A stretch of DNA of 24,415 nucleotides from a virus (lineage: Duplodnaviria > Caudoviricetes): positions 1 through 24,415 of IMG/VR virus record IMGVR_UViG_3300020045_011032, one strand, 5' to 3'. The translations under genes were made by a program, and so were the position numbers. The notes below the pieces were generated by a model. That model had not been told where the DNA came from and searched no databases. It saw nothing but the letters and a program-made list of their open reading frames with translations. Of this stretch, positions 1,094-11,754 are shown in pieces (position 1 is the stretch's first letter; each line of letters opens with the position of its first letter).

Positions 1094-1261
1094 ATGAAAA
1101 AACCATATTTAGATTCAGAAGCTCGTTGGCATATAATAAATAACACTTTATTTGGAAATATGATTTACTCAAATTTTTTATTGTTGAAGCAGTATATTTT
1201 ATTACTTAAAATATTGCGAATAGAAAATATTTTAAATTGGTTGAATAAAAAATTATGCTAA
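1094..1261 (+). CDS. Small hypothetical protein (55 aa), overlaps the terL start
   Basis: Hand translation MKKPYLDSEARWHIINNTLFG...LNWLNKKLC*; fills the gap between 1065 and 1255. Confidence 0.55.
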   Translation: MKKPYLDSEARWHIINNTLFGNMIYSNFLLLKQYILLLKILRIENILNWLNKKLC

Positions 1262-3294
1262 ATAAAATATTTCTACAAAACATAAAAGAAATCCAAGAAG
1301 CTATTTTCAGTTTCAATCCAATAAAACTTGAACCAAGCGAATGGGTTGAGCAAACTGTTTATTTGACTTCTGCGGAATCTAGGTATGCAGGATTTTTTAG
1401 TTATGACCGTTCTCCTTACTCAAAAGAAATATTAGATAATTTAAGTCCTTCATCTGATGTGGAAATGCAAGGAATTATGAAATGTGTTCAATCTGGATTT
1501 ACAGCAGGTGTTGTTGTGAATATTATTGCCTACATAATGTCGCAAAATCCTTCACAAGTAATTTTTGTTTCGGGTTCAGACCAACTTGTAAGAGATACGA
1601 TTCGAGATAGACTTGATCCCGTTATTCAAAATTCTGGAAATCTTAAAGATTTGATAAGACCAAATTCATTAAAAAAAGCAAATCATAGAACGGGAGATAC
1701 TGACATAAAAAAAGAATTTGTTGGTGGAGCTTTGACTTGTTTAACTTATAAACCTTCAAAATTACGTCAGTATTCAGCAAAAATAGTGTTAGCTGATGAA
1801 TTTGATGATGCTCCAAGAAACAACTTATTAGAAGGCTCAATTCGTATGCTTTTGCAAGGTCGTACAGTTTCTTTTGGAAATTCTAAAAAACTTTGCTATA
1901 TTTCTTCTCCAACAACTAAAGGAGTTTCTAACATTGAGGAGGTTTACGAAATGGGAGATAAGCGTAAATGGAATTGGATTTGTCCTCATTGTAACGAATA
2001 TATTCCAATTTTATGGAGGATTGAACGTGAGAACGGAACTCATGGAGGGATTAAATGGGAACTTGATGCAGATGATAAATTAATTGAGGAATCGGTACAT
2101 TATGAGTGCCAAAAGTGTTGCGGTAAAATTGAGTACAAGCAAAAAGCAAAACTTAATCTAACAGGAAAATGGATTCCGACAGCAGTTCCTTTACGACCAC
2201 AATACAGAAGTTATAGTTTCAATGCTATTTGTATTCCAAGTGGTTTTGATGATTGGGTTACTTTGGTTAACGAATGGATATTGGCTTGTCCTAAAAACGA
2301 GCCAATTGATATTGGATTATTAAAAACATTTACTAATACACGTTTGGGAGAGCTTTGGGAGGATAGAGGTACAACACCAAGAGCAATTGGACTTATGAAC
2401 AACGTAGGTTCTTACGAAATTGGCAAAATACCTGACGTTACTTGTGAAACTGATGGAAACGGTAAAATAGCATTAATTTCACTTTGTTGCGATTTAGCAG
2501 GTATAATGGATATGCCAAATAAAATAGAAGATGTTAGGATAGATTGGGAAATAGTTGCACATACTTCTAACGGACAAACTTATTCTATAAATCACGGCAG
2601 TATTGGAACATTCAAAAGAAGCCGTTGGAGAAACAAGCAGGATAGAGAAAAGGAATCTGATAGAGAAATGTGGACTTTCAATCATGGATTACCAAATTCA
2701 GTTTGGAATAAGTTTAAGGAAATAATCTATAATTCTTTGGAAGGAGAAAGCGGAATGTTCTACGATATTGACATTACTTTAGTTGATACAGGAAACTTTA
2801 CCAAATTGGCTTATAATTTTATTACAAGTATAAAAGATAGACGTATTTTTGGTATAAAAGGAGATACCGTAGAAAAACCAAGAGCAAATGACAAAAATAG
2901 TCCCGTAATAAGTCATTCAAGAGAAAATAAAGGACTTTTATATATTTTGGATGTAAATATGCTTAAAGAACAAGTTGCTGCCAATATGGCTTTAATTCAA
3001 GGTTCTGATGGAACACAACCGAGTGGTTTTATGAATTTTCCACAACCTTCAGATGGTCAATATAACTTGAAAAACTTCTTTTCTCACTACGAAAGTGAGG
3101 TTAGAGTGCCTGTATTTAAAAATGGAGTTGAAATAGGTTATGGTTGGAAGAAAAAACGTGAGGACAATCACTTTTGGGACGTAAGGGTGTACGGAGAGGC
3201 TTCAAAGGAAATATTTATAGCTGATTTAAAGCTTCAAGACCCAAAAAACAGAAACCTTACTTGGAATTTATTTTGCGATTTAATTAATGATTAA
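1255..3294 (+). CDS. terL: Terminase large subunit, lambda GpA family
   Basis: 679 aa; GpA-type Walker A region MKCVQSGFT, Walker B IVLADEFD, ISSPT motif, CPHC/CQKC zinc pair, FTNTRLGELW, LVDTG and C-terminal NHFWDVRVY nuclease motif. Confidence 0.93.
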   Translation: MLNKIFLQNIKEIQEAIFSFNPIKLEPSEWVEQTVYLTSAESRYAGFFSYDRSPYSKEILDNLSPSSDVEMQGIMKCVQSGFTAGVVVNIIAYIMSQNPSQVIFVSGSDQLVRDTIRDRLDPVIQNSGNLKDLIRPNSLKKANHRTGDTDIKKEFVGGALTCLTYKPSKLRQYSAKIVLADEFDDAPRNNLLEGSIRMLLQGRTVSFGNSKKLCYISSPTTKGVSNIEEVYEMGDKRKWNWICPHCNEYIPILWRIERENGTHGGIKWELDADDKLIEESVHYECQKCCGKIEYKQKAKLNLTGKWIPTAVPLRPQYRSYSFNAICIPSGFDDWVTLVNEWILACPKNEPIDIGLLKTFTNTRLGELWEDRGTTPRAIGLMNNVGSYEIGKIPDVTCETDGNGKIALISLCCDLAGIMDMPNKIEDVRIDWEIVAHTSNGQTYSINHGSIGTFKRSRWRNKQDREKESDREMWTFNHGLPNSVWNKFKEIIYNSLEGESGMFYDIDITLVDTGNFTKLAYNFITSIKDRRIFGIKGDTVEKPRANDKNSPVISHSRENKGLLYILDVNMLKEQVAANMALIQGSDGTQPSGFMNFPQPSDGQYNLKNFFSHYESEVRVPVFKNGVEIGYGWKKKREDNHFWDVRVYGEASKEIFIADLKLQDPKNRNLTWNLFCDLIND

Positions 3295-3316
3295 TAACTA
3301 AAAAACAATAAAAATT

Positions 3317-3751
3317 ATGTTTGGAATTACAAAAAAAAGAGGAAATTATAATGATGCAATTAGCACTTTTGTAGCTATACCTCCACCACCAAGAAAAGAA
3401 TTTGTTACAATCAGAAATTTAGTAGATAATATTGAAAATTATGATAATCGTTCAGAATTTGAAGTTAGAAATAATTCTATTGATAGTTTAATTCAGTATT
3501 TAGAAAAATATAAATCTATTGTTCCAAAAAAAAGTAATTTTAACAAAACGGAAGAAATTTATCAAAACTTAAAAGATAAATTAACGTCAGAAAAAACAAT
3601 AAACAGACAACCACATACTTTTTGTGAAACGCCAGAAGTAAAATGCACAATGAATTATTGCAATGAAAATGGTTGTCAAAATAGAAAACGAGAAATTGTT
3701 GATGAATGTCTGCTTCCTAATTTTCCACCAGACAAACCAACTAAATGTTAA
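3317..3751 (+). CDS. Hypothetical protein with Pro tract and Cys-rich C-terminus
   Basis: 144-aa ORF; PPPPR; HTFCETPEVKCTMNYCNENGC. Confidence 0.65.
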   Translation: MFGITKKRGNYNDAISTFVAIPPPPRKEFVTIRNLVDNIENYDNRSEFEVRNNSIDSLIQYLEKYKSIVPKKSNFNKTEEIYQNLKDKLTSEKTINRQPHTFCETPEVKCTMNYCNENGCQNRKREIVDECLLPNFPPDKPTKC

Positions 3752-3754
3752 GCT

Positions 3755-3820
3755 ATGAAAACACCATATTACAAACTATGCTACAGAAAGTGGATTTTGG
3801 TAGGATATATAACTGAATAA
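3755..3820 (+). CDS. Possible 21-aa micro-ORF (MKTPYYKLCYRKWILVGYITE)
   Basis: Exactly fills the gap between neighbours with 3-nt and 2-nt spacing. Confidence 0.4.
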   Translation: MKTPYYKLCYRKWILVGYITE

Positions 3821-3822
3821 AA

Positions 3823-4053
3823 ATGAAATGCTATTATACAATTGATCCAAAAACTAAAAATAAAGTATTTATACCAATGTGCTATGGAACTATTCATAGT
3901 TTAGACAAGGATGATTGTTGTTGTGAAAATCCATTAACTGAATATCATTTTGAAAAAGAACGTTTCAATAAAATAGTTAAACAAAAAAATGATACTATTT
4001 TAGCAATGGAATCTGAATTAAGCCGATTGAGAAAAATTCTCAAAATAAATTAA
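3823..4053 (+). CDS. Hypothetical protein, Cys cluster and C-terminal coiled coil
   Basis: 76-aa ORF; FIPMCYG...DDCCC. Confidence 0.65.
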   Translation: MKCYYTIDPKTKNKVFIPMCYGTIHSLDKDDCCCENPLTEYHFEKERFNKIVKQKNDTILAMESELSRLRKILKIN

Positions 4054-4125
4054 TTGTTAAAAACAACAAAAAAAATCACTACGTTTGTAATCACTTATTC
4101 ATGTTGTTTTTTTTGTTTTCTGATG

Positions 4126-4159
4126 AAAAGCTATTCGATTTATTTCGAGTAGCTTTTTT
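4126..4159 (+). terminator. Intrinsic terminator after the terminase unit
   Basis: AAAAGCTATTCGA-tttat-TTCGAGTAGCTTTTTT hairpin with T tract. Confidence 0.8.
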
Positions 4160-4174
4160 ATTCAAATAAATTTC

Positions 4175-4182
4175 TATATTTG
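4175..4182 (+). promoter_or_regulatory. Bacteroidota -7 promoter element for the structural/lysis operon
   Basis: TATATTTG matches TAnnTTTG, directly after a terminator; -33 element not clear. Confidence 0.6.
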
Positions 4183-4227
4183 TAAAGAATTTAAAGTCAA
4201 TGTTGTGATAACATCGAATAAAAATAT

Positions 4228-4274
4228 AGATAAAGGAATACTTGCTTTAGGGTAGGTGTTCCTTTATTTGTTTT
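4228..4274 (+). terminator. Long leader hairpin, possible attenuator, upstream of the gpW-like gene
   Basis: ATAAAGGAATACTTGCT-ttag-GGTAGGTGTTCCTTTAT, 17 bp with four G-U pairs, followed by TTGTTTT. Confidence 0.6.
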
Positions 4275-4292
4275 AAGCTAAAGCGAAAAGAT

Positions 4293-4586
4293 ATGAATGC
4301 AGAATTTACAACAGTATCAGCTTATTTTGAATGCAAATCTAAATTAATTGGTAAAATAGCTACCTATGATTTATTGATTGAATCAATGGAGAAAACTTTA
4401 CTGACAGGTATTGAATCAGGTCACTTACTTCAATGGGAGCTTGATGACGGACAAATGAAAGTTAGAAGTCAGTATCGAAATGTAAATGATTTATCTAAAG
4501 CAATGCAAGGCTTAATTAAATTACGTCAATATTACATAAACAAAGCCAACGGAAGCTCTTTAAGGTTAGTTGGAGGAAAATTTTAA
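4293..4586 (+). CDS. Head-tail joining / head completion protein (gpW-like position)
   Basis: 97 aa, immediately upstream of a lambda-type portal; helix - beta hairpin (WELDDGQMKVRSQY) - helix layout. Confidence 0.6.
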   Translation: MNAEFTTVSAYFECKSKLIGKIATYDLLIESMEKTLLTGIESGHLLQWELDDGQMKVRSQYRNVNDLSKAMQGLIKLRQYYINKANGSSLRLVGGKF

Positions 4587-4595
4587 AAAAACAAG

Positions 4596-6233
4596 ATGGG
4601 AATATTAAGTATTTTAGGATTAAAAAAAATATCCAAAGAAGAAAGTTTAGAAACGTTTCAGCCAAAAAGCAGTACAGCGTATCAAAACAATGACTTTACT
4701 TATGGACCAAGTTATCCAATTATAAGTAAAGATTGGGACGGAGAAAAGAATCTTGGAGAGCTTGGAGTTATCATTAAAAATATTCCAGACTACAAGAAAT
4801 TAAGATTGCGTTCTTATTATGCTTATTCAAGTATAGACACTTTCAAAACTATAGCTTCAAAGTATTTTTATTGGAAAATTGGTTCTGGATTAAAGTTACA
4901 AGCAGAGCCAAATTTAACTGTATTAGAATCTGAAGATATAAACATAACCGATCAACAATCGGCTGAACTTCAAAAAGTAATTGAAGCAAGATTTATGATT
5001 TGGGCGAACTCAAATCAGTCCGATTATCTTAAACAAAAAAACCTACACCAATTAGCAAGTGATTTTGATAAAGGTGCTTTTCTTGGAGGGGATAATCTAT
5101 TGATTGCACGTTTTGATGATAGTGGTCCAACTATTCAATTTGTATCAGGAGAATTTGTTGAGAATCCAGGAATCGATAATAAATATTTTGCAGAAGCAGA
5201 AGCAAAAAAGAATACTATTCAACATGGAATAGAGATTGATGTAAATGGAAAACATATTGCTTATTTTGTTAGAATTAAAAAGAATAATGATTTTGACAAA
5301 TACGAAAGAATACCTGCTTATGGCGCAAATTCTGGTAAAAAATTAGCTTGGTTAGTTTCTGGTAAAAAAGTTAGTCCAGACCATTTGAGAGCAGTTCCAG
5401 AAATGTCGCAATCACTTGAAAAGATTAACAAGCTTGACAGATATGTTGAGGCTGCTGTTACTAAAGCAGAGCAAGGAGCAAATGTTGTTTACTCTATTGA
5501 ACATGAAGATTATTCAGATGGTAGTAGTCCTTTGCAAGATGAGGTTAATAAAAAGAAAGGAATAATTGTAAGTCCGCAATTAGATGATGAACAACAAAGA
5601 GTTTTGGCAGATGGTTTAGCGAATAAAATTTCACAACAAACATCTGGAAAAGCCTATAATATGACACAAGGCGCAAAGCTAAAGTCATTTAAATCAAGTA
5701 TTGAAACAAATTTTGCTGATTTTCATTCAACTGTATTCAATGGAATTAGTGCAGGTGCAAATGTTCCTCCAGAAGTAGCAATGCAAAGTTTCAATTCTAA
5801 TTATTCAGCATCGAGAGCAGCAATCAATAGTTTTGGATATTTCATTACAGTTGATAGACAAACTTTGGCGGAACAATTTTACATTCCTATTTATAAATTG
5901 TGGTTGGAGTTTCAGATTTTGAACAAAAAGATTATTGCTCCAGGCTATATTGAAAATATAAATAATCCAATGGTAACAGAGGCTTATACACAATGTAGAT
6001 TTTTAGGAAAAGATATGCCACATATCGATCCGTTAAAAGAAGCAAAAGCAATTGAGTTGATGTTAGCTTTAAAATTAATTTCACACGAACAAGCTACTGA
6101 AAACTTAGGTCAAGGAAGTTGGGATGAAAACTTTAAGAAATGGCAAATGGAGGACAAATTAATGCCTAAAGAAGAAGTTGTGAAACCTACTTTGCCTACT
6201 AAAAAATCAAATAGTAATTCTGTAAAAAAATAG
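4596..6233 (+). CDS. Portal protein, lambda family
   Basis: 545 aa; IGSGLKLQ, HGIEIDVNGKHIAY, SNYSASRAA and MPHIDPLKEAKA motifs typical of lambda gpB-like portals. Confidence 0.92.
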   Translation: MGILSILGLKKISKEESLETFQPKSSTAYQNNDFTYGPSYPIISKDWDGEKNLGELGVIIKNIPDYKKLRLRSYYAYSSIDTFKTIASKYFYWKIGSGLKLQAEPNLTVLESEDINITDQQSAELQKVIEARFMIWANSNQSDYLKQKNLHQLASDFDKGAFLGGDNLLIARFDDSGPTIQFVSGEFVENPGIDNKYFAEAEAKKNTIQHGIEIDVNGKHIAYFVRIKKNNDFDKYERIPAYGANSGKKLAWLVSGKKVSPDHLRAVPEMSQSLEKINKLDRYVEAAVTKAEQGANVVYSIEHEDYSDGSSPLQDEVNKKKGIIVSPQLDDEQQRVLADGLANKISQQTSGKAYNMTQGAKLKSFKSSIETNFADFHSTVFNGISAGANVPPEVAMQSFNSNYSASRAAINSFGYFITVDRQTLAEQFYIPIYKLWLEFQILNKKIIAPGYIENINNPMVTEAYTQCRFLGKDMPHIDPLKEAKAIELMLALKLISHEQATENLGQGSWDENFKKWQMEDKLMPKEEVVKPTLPTKKSNSNSVKK

Positions 6234-6236
6234 ATT

Positions 6237-6581
6237 ATGAGTTGTTTGAAAACATGGGATATGAATTGCGTAAAAAAAGGCGATACAAGAAAATCCAATT
6301 TGATTACATTGCCTTATGATATTACAGGAATGACTTTTTTGATGCAATTTAGAAAAGCAGAAATAGGTACAAATAACAATCCTGTAGCTTTTGAGTGGTC
6401 AACTGCTGATGGTTCTTTTGTGATTTCTGACGCTTTAAATGGAAAGTTATTGATGAATAAAAAAGTAATTCAAGCAGAACAAGGATTGTATGTTTCAGAT
6501 TTTCAGCAAACAAAAGCAAATGGAGATATTGAAACTTTGTATGATGCAAAAATTAAAATAATCGAAGATATTTCAAGATAA
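6237..6581 (+). CDS. BppU N-terminal-like (baseplate/fibre attachment) virion protein
   Basis: KKGDT, YDITG.TFLMQFR, YVSDFQ pattern; beta-rich 114 aa upstream of a fibre gene. Confidence 0.6.
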   Translation: MSCLKTWDMNCVKKGDTRKSNLITLPYDITGMTFLMQFRKAEIGTNNNPVAFEWSTADGSFVISDALNGKLLMNKKVIQAEQGLYVSDFQQTKANGDIETLYDAKIKIIEDISR

Positions 6582-7942
6582 TGAATATAATCATAGAAGA
6601 AATAGTAAGTGAATTTCCTGTTTTAATCACAGAAGAAGTTGTGCAGATAAAAATATCTGATGCAACTTCTTATTTCGATTTAATAGAGGTTTCTGATGTT
6701 GATTTTGAAGGCAAAAATGGTTATATTCCAACAGTAAATGAATCTACAAAAAAAATAGAATTGCAACCGAAAGATGGAAGTAGTTTTAGTGGAAGTTATA
6801 ATGATTTAACTGATGTACCGCAAGATATAGTTCACGATTCTGATTATATACATACTGACAACAATTATACGGATTCCGATAAACAAAAAGTTCAAGATAT
6901 TGATAATTTAATATCAAATGTAAACACAAATTCAACAACAAAAATAACTGTTAAATTATCAGAAGGTGTAAATAAAGGTCAAGCGGTTTATATTTCAGAA
7001 GCAAATGGAACAAATATAATTGTTTCAAAAGCTTCAAATAATTCAGAATCTACATCAAGTAAAACATTAGGGTTATTAGAAACAACAGGAGTAACAAACG
7101 CAATAGTAAATGTAGTAACTAAAGGTTTTTTAACAGGGCTAAATACTAATTCAGCAACTATAGGTGATGCTGTTTGGTTAGGTACAAACGGTAATTTAAT
7201 ATTTGGATTATCAAGCAAACCAGTTGCGCCAGCTCATTTAGTTTATATTGGAGTTGTATCAAGAGTTCACACTATAAACGGAGAAATACTTGTTAGTATT
7301 CAGAATGGTTTTGAAATGAACGAAATACACGATTTTAGTGATGTTAATTATACTACACCAATAGATACAGATAGTTTAATGGTTAAAGATGTAAGTACTA
7401 ATTTATGGAAAAGATTAACTTTTGCTAATTTAAAAGTATTTCTTAATAATATATATGCTTCAAAATCATTATCAGCTTATTCTTTAAGAGTAAATAATAC
7501 TAATGCTGTAGCTAATGCATCGGAAGTTACTTTTAAATCAGTAGATCCAATAGATTACACAGAAACACCAACTTTTACATTTACAGGAACACAACCAACT
7601 AATTTAACAGAAGCAAAAATCAGCTTCCAACAAATAAATAAAGTAGTTACTATTTCTTTCAATATGTATTATACAACTCAAGGTAATTCTGTTACACAAG
7701 TTGTATTACCACTTCCTGCTACTTTTCCAGTGCCTTATGTAATGAGTACGTTGGATGTTAATTCAGGTAAAATCGCAGTTGGAAAAGGTTTATTATCTTC
7801 TGATAAAACAACTGTAGTAGGTACTTACAATATTTGTTTTTTACGTAAAAATTCAGCGGGTACAGGTTACGAAATAGTATTAATGCAAGCTACTGGAAAC
7901 GTTAGACAAATACAATTTAATTTAACATATCAAACCATTTAA
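6581..7942 (+). CDS. Tail fibre / receptor-binding-like structural protein
   Basis: 453 aa, Thr/Ser/Asn-rich; SGSYNDLTDVP and HTDNNYT motifs, central KGQAVYI...KTLGLL module, beta-rich C-terminal domain. Confidence 0.65.
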   Translation: MNIIIEEIVSEFPVLITEEVVQIKISDATSYFDLIEVSDVDFEGKNGYIPTVNESTKKIELQPKDGSSFSGSYNDLTDVPQDIVHDSDYIHTDNNYTDSDKQKVQDIDNLISNVNTNSTTKITVKLSEGVNKGQAVYISEANGTNIIVSKASNNSESTSSKTLGLLETTGVTNAIVNVVTKGFLTGLNTNSATIGDAVWLGTNGNLIFGLSSKPVAPAHLVYIGVVSRVHTINGEILVSIQNGFEMNEIHDFSDVNYTTPIDTDSLMVKDVSTNLWKRLTFANLKVFLNNIYASKSLSAYSLRVNNTNAVANASEVTFKSVDPIDYTETPTFTFTGTQPTNLTEAKISFQQINKVVTISFNMYYTTQGNSVTQVVLPLPATFPVPYVMSTLDVNSGKIAVGKGLLSSDKTTVVGTYNICFLRKNSAGTGYEIVLMQATGNVRQIQFNLTYQTI

Positions 7943-7946
7943 AACC

Positions 7947-9191
7947 ATGAAAAAAATCATTTTACTATTATCAATCGCTCTATTTTCTTGTGGAAATCCA
8001 CAGAAAGAAAAATTAACAAATGATGTTGAAAATCACTTTGCGAAATTAGCGGATAGTTGCCAGGTTGTAACTTCTAATCTATACAACAAAGAAACTGCAA
8101 CAATCGGACAAGCTATCTTATCTAATGGAACTTTTACCATAAACACGAATAACGTTGTTTCCGAATTTATTCAATTAGAACCAAGTACAACGTATAGCTA
8201 TTCAGGAGCAAAAGGATTAGGAAATTACAACTACCTATATGATAGTAACTATAATCCAGTACGTTCACTTGGAGCGTTAGTAAATGGAAGTTTTACCACA
8301 AATGCTACTACCGAAATTTATGCAAGATTTACAGTTGGAAATGCATCATTTGGAACTGGAACTGATAAAGGAATGCTTCAAATCAATAAAGGAGCTACAG
8401 TTGATTATCTACAGCCATTTGGGGTTCAAAGGTGTTTAAGTTTTACTGATTTTCTTCCTGAAAACGCAGTACTTGTTTTAATTGATTTGGGTCAAAGTAA
8501 TGCTTTAGGAGCATGCGTAAACAATACAGGTGGGTCTTTTAAATCTGAACGCCAACAAACTAACATTGTTCAAGAATGGAATAAAACCGCTGGTGTATTT
8601 CAAAACCAAAACATTGACTCTCGTGGAAGTCATGGAATTAATTTAACACTTCAAAAGTTGGCTTACAAACTTTCACGACCATTTTACTATGTTAATTGTG
8701 CTGTCGGTGGCACAAATATTTCGAAACATTTACCACCTAACGGTTCCGTTTATTTAACAACCAATACTGCTATTGTCAATTCAATTAATCAACTTATTGC
8801 ATCTGGGAAACGACCTTTTGTATGGGTAAGATGGGTTCAAGGCGAAAGCGATAGCACATCACAAACAGGAGTAAATGCTTATACTAACAAGCAAATAAGC
8901 TGGCTTAATTTCTGGAAATCTAAATTAGGTCAAAACGTACCTTTTATTTTTGGAGGAATAAATGTTTGGGGAATTGAACCAAATCCAACCTATGATGTAG
9001 CAATAAATCAAACTAAAATTAATTTAGCAAATCAAGGTTTGGTAACTTTTTATGATGTAACTCAATTCTCGTTTACAGTAGGTAATGATGAACACCGAAA
9101 TTATAATGGCTATGCTCAAGAAGCAAATTATGTTTGGAATTTACTAAATCAAATTCAACCTACAGAAATTACACAAACTTTAAATTTATAA
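7947..9191 (+). CDS. Lipoprotein with SGNH sialate/carbohydrate O-acetylesterase domain
   Basis: Signal peptide II MKKIILLLSIALFS-C; blocks GQSNA, CAVGGT, WVQGESD and a C-terminal His (NDEH). Confidence 0.78.
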   Translation: MKKIILLLSIALFSCGNPQKEKLTNDVENHFAKLADSCQVVTSNLYNKETATIGQAILSNGTFTINTNNVVSEFIQLEPSTTYSYSGAKGLGNYNYLYDSNYNPVRSLGALVNGSFTTNATTEIYARFTVGNASFGTGTDKGMLQINKGATVDYLQPFGVQRCLSFTDFLPENAVLVLIDLGQSNALGACVNNTGGSFKSERQQTNIVQEWNKTAGVFQNQNIDSRGSHGINLTLQKLAYKLSRPFYYVNCAVGGTNISKHLPPNGSVYLTTNTAIVNSINQLIASGKRPFVWVRWVQGESDSTSQTGVNAYTNKQISWLNFWKSKLGQNVPFIFGGINVWGIEPNPTYDVAINQTKINLANQGLVTFYDVTQFSFTVGNDEHRNYNGYAQEANYVWNLLNQIQPTEITQTLNL

Positions 9192-9196
9192 ATATT

Positions 9197-9328
9197 ATGA
9201 AAGCAATTTTAGCATTAGATCAAGAGGCGACAAAAGAGCAATTAGAATTTACAGAAAAAACAATTGCCTTAGCAAAAGAAGTAGGATTGGAATTAGAATT
9301 AATTGGTGGTCGTCCAAATGACAGATAA
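9197..9328 (+). CDS. 43-aa peptide ending ELIGGRPNDR (start corrected from 9134)
   Basis: ATG in typical AATATTATG context 5 nt after the upstream stop; overlaps the next ATG. Confidence 0.75.
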   Translation: MKAILALDQEATKEQLEFTEKTIALAKEVGLELELIGGRPNDR

Positions 9329-9635
9329 ACTATTTAATATAATTGTATTTTTCTCACTGTTATTAGATATAGCAGTGAGAAATTATAGTTATATGTTTCC
9401 GCAACACTTTTACTATACTGGCGAGGCTATTTTAATACTTTCAATTGCAAGTTTTTTGTATTATGTAAAAGATACAGCAATAACTTTTTTAGTATTTATG
9501 TTGGCTTTAAACAACTTATGTGACGAGTTATTTTTCAATCCAAAAGAATTAAGTTATAATGAATTATCGTTTGCTGTAATAGCTATTGCAATGTTGATTT
9601 TAAGACGAATTTTAAAAATAAACTTGTATGATTAA
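9318..9635 (+). CDS. Four-TM membrane protein (105 aa; start corrected from 9303)
   Basis: About four hydrophobic segments; polar motif LNNLCDELFFNP...SYNE. Confidence 0.75.
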   Translation: MTDKLFNIIVFFSLLLDIAVRNYSYMFPQHFYYTGEAILILSIASFLYYVKDTAITFLVFMLALNNLCDELFFNPKELSYNELSFAVIAIAMLILRRILKINLYD

Positions 9636-9861
9636 ATTTATAAAAGATACACTTCAAACCAATGGTAAATGGTCGTTAAAACGATGTTTAGCGGTGTTGT
9701 TTTCGCATTATGTTATAGTTTACACTTATACACCATCTTGGAATAGTGCCTTTGAAGTTTTAGAGTTTGTTGTTGCTTCAATATTAATGTTTGTGGCTAC
9801 ATTGTTAGGATTGAATGAATATGCAAAAAGATTACAATTGAAAAATAAAAGCGAAGAGTAA
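9628..9861 (+). CDS. Putative holin (2 TM)
   Basis: 77 aa, NGKWSLKR then two hydrophobic segments and a charged tail; upstream of the endolysin. Confidence 0.6.
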   Translation: MIKFIKDTLQTNGKWSLKRCLAVLFSHYVIVYTYTPSWNSAFEVLEFVVASILMFVATLLGLNEYAKRLQLKNKSEE

Positions 9862-10214
9862 TGCATTATAAATTTTTACTAAAGTTTAGCGATGCTTTTT
9901 TTGGTTTAATAGCTGGAATTAATTTTTTGCAGTTTTTACCTTTAATTGCGCAACAACCAATGTCTGTTTTGTCGGAAGTTGACAATTCGATAAAGGTAGG
10001 AATGTCTTTATTTGGATTTATATATTTTGGTTTAAGAATTTATTACTATCATCAAAATCAAAAAACAGATATTAAATTAAAAAACGAACAAATTAGACAA
10101 CTTGAAATTGATAACAACGCAAAAATAATGCCTCAATATTTATTTAAAAACGACATTGAAAGCCTTAAAGAAAGCGGAGAATATGAAATTAGTGAGGAAC
10201 GATTAAAAAAATAA
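9861..10214 (+). CDS. Two-TM membrane protein, holin/antiholin-like
   Basis: Two hydrophobic helices plus charged coiled C-terminus, adjacent to the endolysin. Confidence 0.55.
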   Translation: MHYKFLLKFSDAFFGLIAGINFLQFLPLIAQQPMSVLSEVDNSIKVGMSLFGFIYFGLRIYYYHQNQKTDIKLKNEQIRQLEIDNNAKIMPQYLFKNDIESLKESGEYEISEERLKK

Positions 10215-10220
10215 AACATT

Positions 10221-10766
10221 ATGATATTTATTTCAGCAGGACATAATCCAAAAGGGATTAAAAAAGATAGTGGAGCAGTAGGCAACGGATATACAGAAGC
10301 TAATTTAGCGGTTGAATTCCGTAATTTAGTAATAGCACAACTAAAAAATAAAAAAGCTCCTTACGTTTCAGATAATGACGACGAAAGACTGTCGGAATAT
10401 TTAGAACGCATTAAAACTGGAAATGCTTCGGTTGTGTTGGAATTTCATTTTGACGCTTCGGACAAACCAACAGCAACTGGAACAACAGCTTTAGTCGGAA
10501 CAGATGCGGACAGATTAGATAATGCTTTTGCTAAAGAATTGGTTAATGCTACGGCTTTTAGGTTAGGTATTAAAAATAGAGGCGTTATAAATGAGGCTCA
10601 AAGTCATAGAGGACGTTTAGGATTGATGCGTGAAAACGGAATAGTTTGTTTATTAGAATTGTGTTTTATTTCAAATATTTATGATTTAACAGCGTATCAC
10701 GAAAATAAACAACAATTAGCAAAAGACATAGCAGAAATTGTTATAAAATATGATGCTTTGATTTAA
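10221..10766 (+). CDS. Endolysin, N-acetylmuramoyl-L-alanine amidase (Amidase_3)
   Basis: IFISAGH, GA.GNG.TE, LEFHFDA and LLELCFISN zinc/catalytic motifs; no cell-wall-binding domain. Confidence 0.93.
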   Translation: MIFISAGHNPKGIKKDSGAVGNGYTEANLAVEFRNLVIAQLKNKKAPYVSDNDDERLSEYLERIKTGNASVVLEFHFDASDKPTATGTTALVGTDADRLDNAFAKELVNATAFRLGIKNRGVINEAQSHRGRLGLMRENGIVCLLELCFISNIYDLTAYHENKQQLAKDIAEIVIKYDALI

Positions 10767-10947: not shown

Positions 10948-11754
10948 ATGAAAAACAAAGAAGTATTAATATTACGTTGCTTGGTTGGCTTACTGCTTTT
11001 GTGGTTGGTATTATCGTTTTTAAAATACAACAGTCAAAGAAATTTTGACAGTTCGACACTGACAAAAAAAGAAACCGAAAACGTCGAAATCCAACACGCA
11101 AAAGATTTGCTACAGTCAAAGTATGACAATGTTTTAAATAGAGTTAAAAGTGATTCTATTAAATCAATTGCATCAGCTAAACAGTTGGAGCAAATGAAAA
11201 AACAAGCGGTCCAGAATCAGGCTAAACTAAAACTATTTGACAGTGGAGAAATTGCGATGTTTTACAAAGAGCGTTACGAGTTATGGAATGAAGTTAAAAC
11301 AACTGCCAACGGAACTGAAGTTAGCGATACGGTTGGAATTAAGATTATTTCCGATTTAGTTGCTGGTGACGATGCTATAAATCAATTAAGGTTTACAAAT
11401 GAAATTTTAAAGGATTGTGAATTGACATCGAAGCGAAAAGATACTTTGATTAATAATTGTGAAAAAAGGGTATTGCTAACCGAAAAACAATATGGAAATT
11501 CTTTAATCGATAATTATATTCTTAAAACTGAAAATTCAAAACTGAAAGCAGAAAACAACAGAGAGGTAAAATTTAGGCTTTTAGGAGGGCTTGAATACGG
11601 AAACAATGTTACACTATCAAATTCGATTTTTAAAGCTAATTTAAGCGGTCAAAATCGTAAAGGAAACATATATAGGTTTTCGGTTGATAATAATAAAAAC
11701 TACTATATCGGATATGATTTTAGCATATTCAGCATCAAAGGAAAAAAGAAATAG
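10948..11754 (+). CDS. Spanin-like lysis protein
   Basis: Single N-terminal TM, long helical/coiled region, C-terminal amphipathic beta strands; last gene before the terminator, after the endolysin. Confidence 0.55.
   Translation: MKNKEVLILRCLVGLLLLWLVLSFLKYNSQRNFDSSTLTKKETENVEIQHAKDLLQSKYDNVLNRVKSDSIKSIASAKQLEQMKKQAVQNQAKLKLFDSGEIAMFYKERYELWNEVKTTANGTEVSDTVGIKIISDLVAGDDAINQLRFTNEILKDCELTSKRKDTLINNCEKRVLLTEKQYGNSLIDNYILKTENSKLKAENNREVKFRLLGGLEYGNNVTLSNSIFKANLSGQNRKGNIYRFSVDNNKNYYIGYDFSIFSIKGKKK

Follow-up and report, generated by a model that had tools for sequence, protein, structure and literature searches.

Introduction

A small peptide gene beside a membrane-protein gene is the arrangement found both for double-glycine leader peptides with their C39 peptidase-ABC exporters and for the agrD/agrB pair. 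Among phages, the arbitrium system of Bacillus phages (AimP-AimR-AimX) makes a density-dependent decision with a short C-terminal peptide encoded beside its receptor gene. AimP is secreted and processed and then enters cells through the Opp importer; its receptor AimR, a TPR-HTH transcription factor of the cytoplasm, sets lysis against lysogeny (PMC12472986). A second kind of density-dependent control is T4 lysis inhibition, in which the antiholins RI and RIII hold the holin T after superinfection. In T4, as in N4 and BSPM4 (ORF52), a phage membrane-level regulator delays the holin at high phage density. Superinfection serves as the cue in T4, where a periplasmic antiholin reads what is probably DNA in the periplasm (PMC11413866; 10.1101/2025.11.12.688109; PMC11657625).

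Here we analyzed two overlapping genes of IMG/VR virus record IMGVR_UViG_3300020045_011032 (24.4 kb, completeness estimate 49%), of which the whole stretch of 24,415 nucleotides is referred to as the window. A preliminary description of the window had proposed that a 43-aa peptide and a 105-aa membrane protein form a signalling pair at the head of a lysis cassette, with cleavage after a double glycine releasing RPNDR and with the membrane protein as processor, exporter or receptor. The pair is real and part of a widespread, undescribed module that occurs in many phages of Bacteroidota. Its tag is a portable unit conserved at the peptide level and is tied to one membrane-protein family at the head of lysis cassettes, sometimes fused to a holin-like protein. 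The core of the earlier idea holds once the ligand is corrected and the double-glycine model dropped, and would amount to a new kind of system if the sensing function holds. A literature search, covering text outside subscription journals and supplements, returned no description of the module, of its motif strings or of the PHROG number.

Comparison of the locus with described systems

On our analysis, the module most likely works like T4 lysis inhibition, with which it would share a phage-encoded regulator at the membrane that delays the holin when phage density is high. It differs from T4 in its candidate cue, a dedicated peptide of the phage's own, and in its candidate reader, a four-helix membrane protein, for which neither homology to T, RI or RIII (Pfam, PHROG and PDB sequence searches) nor a fold match was found. 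The module did not fit the arbitrium, agr or double-glycine systems. It resembles arbitrium in having a short C-terminal peptide encoded beside a candidate receptor gene and in the density-dependent decision that it may serve, but the window peptide and 61 of 91 related tag-bearing proteins (carriers) lack a hydrophobic segment and so do not look like secreted pro-peptides, and the candidate receptor, a membrane protein of 105 aa, has no DNA-binding part, belongs to a phage of a Gram-negative host and has a holin as its likely output. A small peptide gene beside a membrane-protein gene is likewise shared with the double-glycine and agr systems. In contrast to double-glycine peptides, however, the conserved part is a C-terminal tag and not a leader (46 carrier clusters, one tag), and GG precedes RP in only 40 of 97 tags. 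In contrast to agr, the tag holds no conserved Cys or Ser that could form a ring, and neither an AgrB nor a kinase family was found in the searches given below.

Genes of the lysis cassette in the window

The 43-aa ORF (9197..9328, + strand) and the 105-aa ORF (9318..9635, + strand) translate as claimed and overlap by 11 nt. The 43-aa product is a tag carrier, for which structure prediction indicates a beta-alpha-beta body (E2-6, H13-28, E32-36) and a free C-terminal tail; hydropathy gave no hydrophobic export signal or segment. The tag itself, LIGGRPNDR, is encoded at 9299..9325 (+ strand), as delimited by the family consensus and by a nonamer unit deduced from tandem repeats in relatives. 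The 105-aa product is a four-helix membrane protein and candidate sensor with a predicted N-in/C-in topology (phrog_6635, AlphaFold2, charge counts), whose conserved motif NNLCDELFFNP...NE (residues 65-82; 9510..9563, + strand) is predicted to form an acidic pocket facing the periplasm. Just past the stop of the tag gene, the region coding for helix 1 also contains a long mRNA hairpin (9337..9394, + strand).

In the lysis cassette of the preliminary description, the endolysin is an N-acetylmuramoyl-L-alanine amidase (10221..10766, + strand; Pfam Amidase_3, E 8e-20; phrog_435 endolysin), whereas the window genes called holin-like and spanin-like carry these names by position and hydropathy only. 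They comprise a 77-aa small membrane protein (9628..9861, + strand) and a 117-aa membrane protein with a polar C-terminal half (9861..10214, + strand), both holin-like by position without a Pfam or PHROG match, and a 268-aa protein with an N-terminal hydrophobic helix (10948..11754, + strand), spanin-like by position and without a significant family. The 77-aa protein is weakly similar to a lysis-cassette gene of another locus (L188), and both it and the 117-aa protein fall outside the holin-like family that usually lies 3' of the sensor. No C39 peptidase-ABC exporter was present among the scanned window proteins of this 49% complete record or among the downstream genes of the relatives' loci.

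Terminase and portal genes lie upstream of the pair, and replication and methylase genes downstream. From 1255 to 7942 the window runs from terminase and portal to tail-like genes and on to the lysis cassette, with no capsid gene recognized in between, a layout that resembles the portal-lysis adjacency of phage FCL-2. Directly upstream of the carrier, between the tail-like genes and the lysis cassette, a 414-aa protein (7947-9191) combines a lipoprotein-like N-terminus (LFSC) with a SASA carbohydrate esterase domain (E 4e-10).

A conserved C-terminal tag is paired with the membrane protein

Using the membrane protein alone, 138 loci were fetched, 102 of which were non-redundant; 7 of these were cut off upstream, leaving 95. 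A short upstream ORF with the conserved tail, as anticipated in the preliminary description, was present in 93 of the 95 (recounted independently), compared with a G-x-R-P-type tag at 2 of 793 other ORF ends in the same loci. The pairing of tag and membrane protein is therefore far beyond chance, with the reservation that the first alignment was seeded from loci found through the tag and the sampling of the family may lean towards tagged members. Tag statistics refer to the 97 loci that remained after L145, L160 and one L169 row had been left out as spurious or duplicate; a further match, L003, was spurious. The two untagged loci are L077 and the degenerate L154. In L077 (2172-2647) the sensor stands without a tagged carrier. 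In the related locus L088, an 88-aa carrier accompanies the same 39-aa gene that precedes the L077 sensor; the carrier thus seems to have been lost from L077, a possible eavesdropper.

Searching in the opposite direction, a DNA pattern for the tag alone found 32 loci, 14 of which combined the tag with a phrog_6635-type membrane gene; the rest were short off-frame matches in one repeated phage gene (15) and others (3). Two further tag patterns yielded 11 loci, 5 of them ORF-terminal, and in all 4 that were checked a membrane gene of the same family followed.

The tag follows the consensus [IV]-G-x-R-P-[NDK]-D-R and in most carriers lies within 0-2 residues of the end of the protein, although the distance from motif to stop ranges from 0 to about 10 residues. 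For the G, R, P, D and R of the tag every synonymous codon is used. Gaps between tag gene and membrane gene range between -17 and +7 and fall in all three frames, which ruled out a conserved frameshift that would join tag and sensor. Nor is the tail a by-product of gene overlap, since 44 of 97 tags have no overlap with the membrane gene and the G-x-R-P core never overlaps it. The Asp and Arg are kept in 27 and 33 of the 44 non-overlapping tags, and in 45 and 49 of the 53 tags that overlap the start codon. The preliminary description had named, as findings that would speak against it, a tail that is not conserved beside homologues or is conserved only through the overlap; instead, the tag is kept beside the homologues and also where it is free of overlap.

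Three unrelated carriers (L082/L084, L103 and L164) contain the tag as tandem nonamers, namely TTGNRPDDR x3, IGGDRPDDR x2 and TVGNRP[NK]DR x3. These repeats suggest that the unit spans about nine residues, the invariant Gly among them, and corresponds to LIGGRPNDR in the window. Cleavage after GG to release RPNDR, as first proposed, is consequently unsupported, because the second Gly is found in only 40 of 97 tags (T, D, N, P, K, Q, E, S or A otherwise occupy this position); the nonamer, moreover, includes the invariant Gly and the residues before it. The tag has no conserved Cys or Ser, and tags of unrelated phages are much alike.

Two variations on the tag were also observed. In L050 (1338-1601), a second, off-frame upstream ORF ends in the tag-like GGRPENRG, which may be due to chance. 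The carriers of L155, L133, L156 and L141 extend the tag by proline-rich tails, e.g., GGRHDDRNPPPPPPTNP and GGRPDDRQPKKP, and such extensions may tie the system to proline-tailed peptides of other phages.

Tag carriers are freely exchanged

With the tag removed, 92 carriers fell into 46 clusters, in agreement with the variable N-terminus expected for the upstream ORF: the carrier N-terminus is freely exchangeable. Carriers are 27-161 aa long and either soluble or membrane-bound, including soluble peptides of 27-60 aa (the beta-alpha-beta type of the window among them), acidic disordered peptides, soluble proteins of 90 aa and membrane proteins with one to three helices. A crude hydropathy scan classed 30 of 91 as membrane carriers and the other 61 as free of hydrophobic segments. 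Where two or more helices were detected, the side bearing the tag was the more basic one in 17 of 20 carriers, and by this crude method the tag side is probably cytoplasmic; 10 of the 30 membrane carriers gave ties or the opposite orientation.

The 71-aa two-helix carrier of FCV-1 (L001:2219-2433) is off frame in an A run of the FCL-2 record (L002:2218-2433). The shorter ORF annotated as the FCL-2 carrier has its tag intact, and the difference may be a natural variant or a sequencing error.

The four-helix membrane protein is a candidate sensor

The 105-aa protein of the window matches phrog_6635 (E 5.8e-6), a family without annotated function in PHROGs whose profile also matches 92 of 97 relatives. 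A single-sequence homologue search with the window protein recovered only the query, and homologues were therefore gathered with profiles; the family comprises 50 representatives at 50% identity and 333 clusters at 90% identity. The AlphaFold2 model of the window protein (mean pLDDT 86) consists of helices 3-26, 31-50, 54-72 and 81-104. The unusually polar motif noticed earlier is a signature of the whole family, with N66, L67, D69, E70, F72, F73 and E82 each conserved in at least 90% of a 97-sequence alignment. Topology, here and for the carriers, was assessed from charge counts and a crude hydropathy scan. Loop 69-82 is acidic (mean of 3.9 D/E versus 0.7 K/R residues), whereas loop 49-54 and the C-terminus (mean of 4.1 basic residues) are basic, which by the positive-inside rule predicts an N-in/C-in arrangement. 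As the conserved positions (21, 24, 32-37 and 65-82) gather at helix ends on the acidic side, which is the predicted outside, we infer an outward-facing pocket.

Comparison with known families did not assign a function. Among the Pfam matches listed (25 of 34 families at E<=0.05, over 97 members), no family was common to the members and none matched more than three of them. No holin family of Pfam or PHROG matched any of the 97 sensors, and a PDB sequence search with the sensor gave no match. At the structural level, Foldseek found no fold match in the PDB at E<=0.001, the best VIA fold match (Z 8.3, rmsd 6.3 over 98 residues) was to generic helical bundles, and an ESM Atlas search returned nothing beyond unnamed clusters below 0.9 and a MerC-like model under the threshold. 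Proteins of Bacteroidota phages were among the named matches listed in a Foldseek search against viral models. A search of longer proteins, which is weak evidence, contained no sensor fusions of 224-2000 aa and no kinase fusion.

Holin-like partners follow the candidate sensor gene

The proposed link to holin-like genes proved strong, as one family lies next to the sensor in 82 of 94 loci (single linkage, redundancy included) and its gene usually overlaps the end of the sensor gene. This family, phrog_5883, matches holin PHROGs 2359 (up to E 3e-15) and 785, and 4 of 14 partners tested scored 19-21 bits against Pfam PF16083 (Phage_holin_3_3, LydA-type), below the cut-off of 28.4; the label "holin-like" is hence one of homology only, below the Pfam cut-off. 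In three proteins, which share about 54% identity with one another, the sensor is fused to the holin-like domain. They are singletons from one source, so that single-base errors in the overlap are possible. In the other 12 of 94 loci, the window included, different small membrane or coiled-coil genes lie downstream, and the output is accordingly not one fixed partner. An endolysin or amidase gene starts within 1.5 kb in 20 of 28 representative loci with enough DNA, and 8 of 28 have no annotated one nearby. In one locus (L049:2414-3877), baseplate genes, and not an endolysin, come directly after tag, sensor and holin-like gene.

Proposed mechanism

We consider it likely, from sequence conservation and pairing, that the tag is the ligand of the adjoining four-helix protein, so that the two would form a candidate ligand-sensor pair. 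Co-variation of tail and membrane-protein residues, raised in the preliminary description, was found as an association but failed a phylogenetic test. Across 57 representatives that share less than 60% identity, sensor positions 32-36 held an acidic residue alongside 10 of 17 tags without Asp versus 3 of 40 others (Fisher p 8e-5, for a pattern chosen post hoc), and those three exceptions carry a possibly compensating Arg21, as does the window. The phylogenetic test, by contrast, left 1 independent pair on well-supported branches (p 1), and the top mutual-information matches were confounded by kinship. The co-variation is suggestive, a lead and not proof.

More tentatively, and with somewhat less than even confidence, we propose that the pair acts between cells, with a peptide released by lysis and a minimal receptor that gates the holin. 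The tag would be made on the cytoplasmic side while the conserved acidic pocket of the sensor would face the periplasm, so that the inner membrane would separate tag from sensor as long as the cell is intact. When neighbouring infected cells lyse, the tag would be set free, unspecific proteases would trim it to about nine residues, and the basic tag could then bind the acidic outer pocket from outside and alter the triggering of the holin-like protein encoded next. Most likely, lysis would be postponed once many neighbours have burst, much as happens in lysis inhibition. Since there is no export signal and a third of the carriers are membrane proteins, the tag would need to be released and then to pass through the outer membrane of the recipient cell, and this passage, for which there is no known route, is the main difficulty of the between-cell proposal. 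The close likeness of tags in unrelated phages also implies little private specificity.

If true, this would be phage peptide communication in Gram-negative hosts that acts on lysis timing and not on lysogeny. The class of receptor involved would be linked directly to a holin and be far smaller than the peptide receptors known so far. The system would also provide a defined chemical signal for density-dependent lysis control, for which the T4 cue is only partly known. With a nine-residue synthetic peptide as candidate ligand and with the cultured phages P2559Y, Gundel_1, FL-1 and FCL-2/FCV-1, the proposal is directly testable. Should signalling not hold up, the portable tag and its partner still account for two PHROG families without annotation, spread over several hundred phage proteins (333 clusters at 90% identity).

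Alternative explanations

The same ligand and sensor might instead work within a single cell, either as a late-gene counter or through a tag that reaches the outer pocket at the first membrane lesions, and trigger or restrain the holin in the manner of an antiholin or an all-or-none switch. The missing export signal, the membrane-anchored carriers (30 of 91), the tight gene overlap and the low diversity of tags between phages would all be accounted for, and passage through the outer membrane would be unnecessary. However, tandem copies and free exchange of carriers fit a diffusible peptide that is read by dose, and a tethered tag facing the cytoplasm would hardly reach a periplasm-facing pocket of the same membrane; on balance, we regard action within one cell as rather unlikely.

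It is unlikely that the pair serves superinfection exclusion or another late membrane function and is just co-transcribed with the lysis genes, or that the membrane protein is a plain holin or antiholin with the tag as a docking motif. While the exchangeable downstream partner and the loci lacking a nearby annotated endolysin would be in keeping with such roles, the overlap with and fusion to the holin-like gene, as well as the failure of holin families to match any of the 97 sensors, argue against them.

The near-invariant N66, D69, E70 and E82 could also be catalytic residues, as they would be if the membrane protein were a miniature peptidase or exporter with an AgrB-like role that cuts or moves the tag, the true receptor lying elsewhere. 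One of the 97 members has a weak Peptidase_A8 match (E 0.006), and the motif bears a loose resemblance to signal peptidase II. Nevertheless, no AgrB, C39, CAAX or other peptidase family is common to the 97 members among the Pfam matches listed, which leaves the processor or exporter role of the preliminary description unsupported. Furthermore, the conserved face is predicted on the opposite side from the tag, the fusion to a holin-like protein fits a regulator, and no second conserved gene that might encode a receptor travels with the pair. We therefore rate a peptidase or exporter as quite unlikely.

The mRNA hairpin bears on a reading in which the tag acts in cis on the ribosome, as a nascent arrest or coupling peptide that, together with the hairpin, sets translation of the membrane and holin genes. 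The window hairpin (z -7.0) has a perfect 14-bp core (9350-9382) and was flagged as terminator-like. Strong hairpins of unrelated sequence are similarly placed after the stop in 17 of 58 diverse relatives, compared with 0-5 of 58 at other offsets, and the tag is a C-terminal Arg-Pro motif beside a tightly coupled gene. Yet the hairpin is missing in 41 of 58, the tag is tied to one protein family and not to any following gene, and both the distance from motif to stop and the gap to the membrane gene vary as given above. The tag also differs from the RAPP/RGPP motif (PMC10951233, PMC12992588), and a ribosomal role appears quite unlikely. Structures that follow stop codons in mRNA are reported to curb re-initiation (PMC7518266), and the hairpin may keep expression of the sensor and lysis genes below that of the tag. 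Promoter-like sites were at chance level.

Finally, that the tail is an artefact of overlap or a DNA or RNA signal has a negligible probability and is refuted by the use of all synonymous codons and a core that never overlaps the membrane gene, together with the tandem repeats, despite the somewhat better conservation of Asp and Arg where the tag overlaps the start codon.

Distribution and distant relatives

Among cultured phages, the order tag, sensor, holin-like gene occurs in FCL-2/FCV-1, FL-1, Gundel_1 and P2559Y. Their annotations list all these proteins as hypothetical (AIX11869.1 and AIX11870.1 for the FCL-2 sensor and next gene, AKH87447.1 for the carrier) and do not record the tag-family link. 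A search of 401 Bacteroidota genomes found one true member, in the Chitinophaga centre genome, which indicates that the module is rare in the prophages searched. Five weak matches were large soluble enzymes, which we take to be glucan phosphorylases, and not members; one match was broken by stops. A DNA pattern of the tag plus stop occurred in 2 of the 401 genomes, equal to the reversed control, and no host-made tag was thus found in the 401 genomes searched. Two candidates were rejected, L197 as a short off-frame match and L198 because its tag is not encoded in frame.

A distant four-helix relative was detected in the Cellulophaga phages phi19:1 and Nekkels_1 (14 and 7 bits). It is flanked there on one side by a carrier whose tail is different and rich in Lys and Pro, and on the other by the same holin-like family. 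Going further than the between-cell proposal, and held with correspondingly less confidence, is the conjecture that largely non-integrating phages of Gram-negative Bacteroidota share a peptide language, in which every lysing cell would spill a nonamer that any late protein can bear, a receptor of about 100 residues wired to the holin would read it in infected neighbours, and lysis would be postponed. Phages without a tag would then eavesdrop and those with tandem tags would shout, and the variant tail of the Cellulophaga phages would be a second dialect of a wider receptor superfamily.

Gene order in phi19:1 and Nekkels_1 (L184:751-1815 and L185:751-1815) is the same as in the other loci, and their four-helix protein has a DAIDRWLF motif. 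The sensor gene is unannotated in the Nekkels_1 record, and in phi19:1 the next gene encodes a 240-aa protein with an N-terminal helix.
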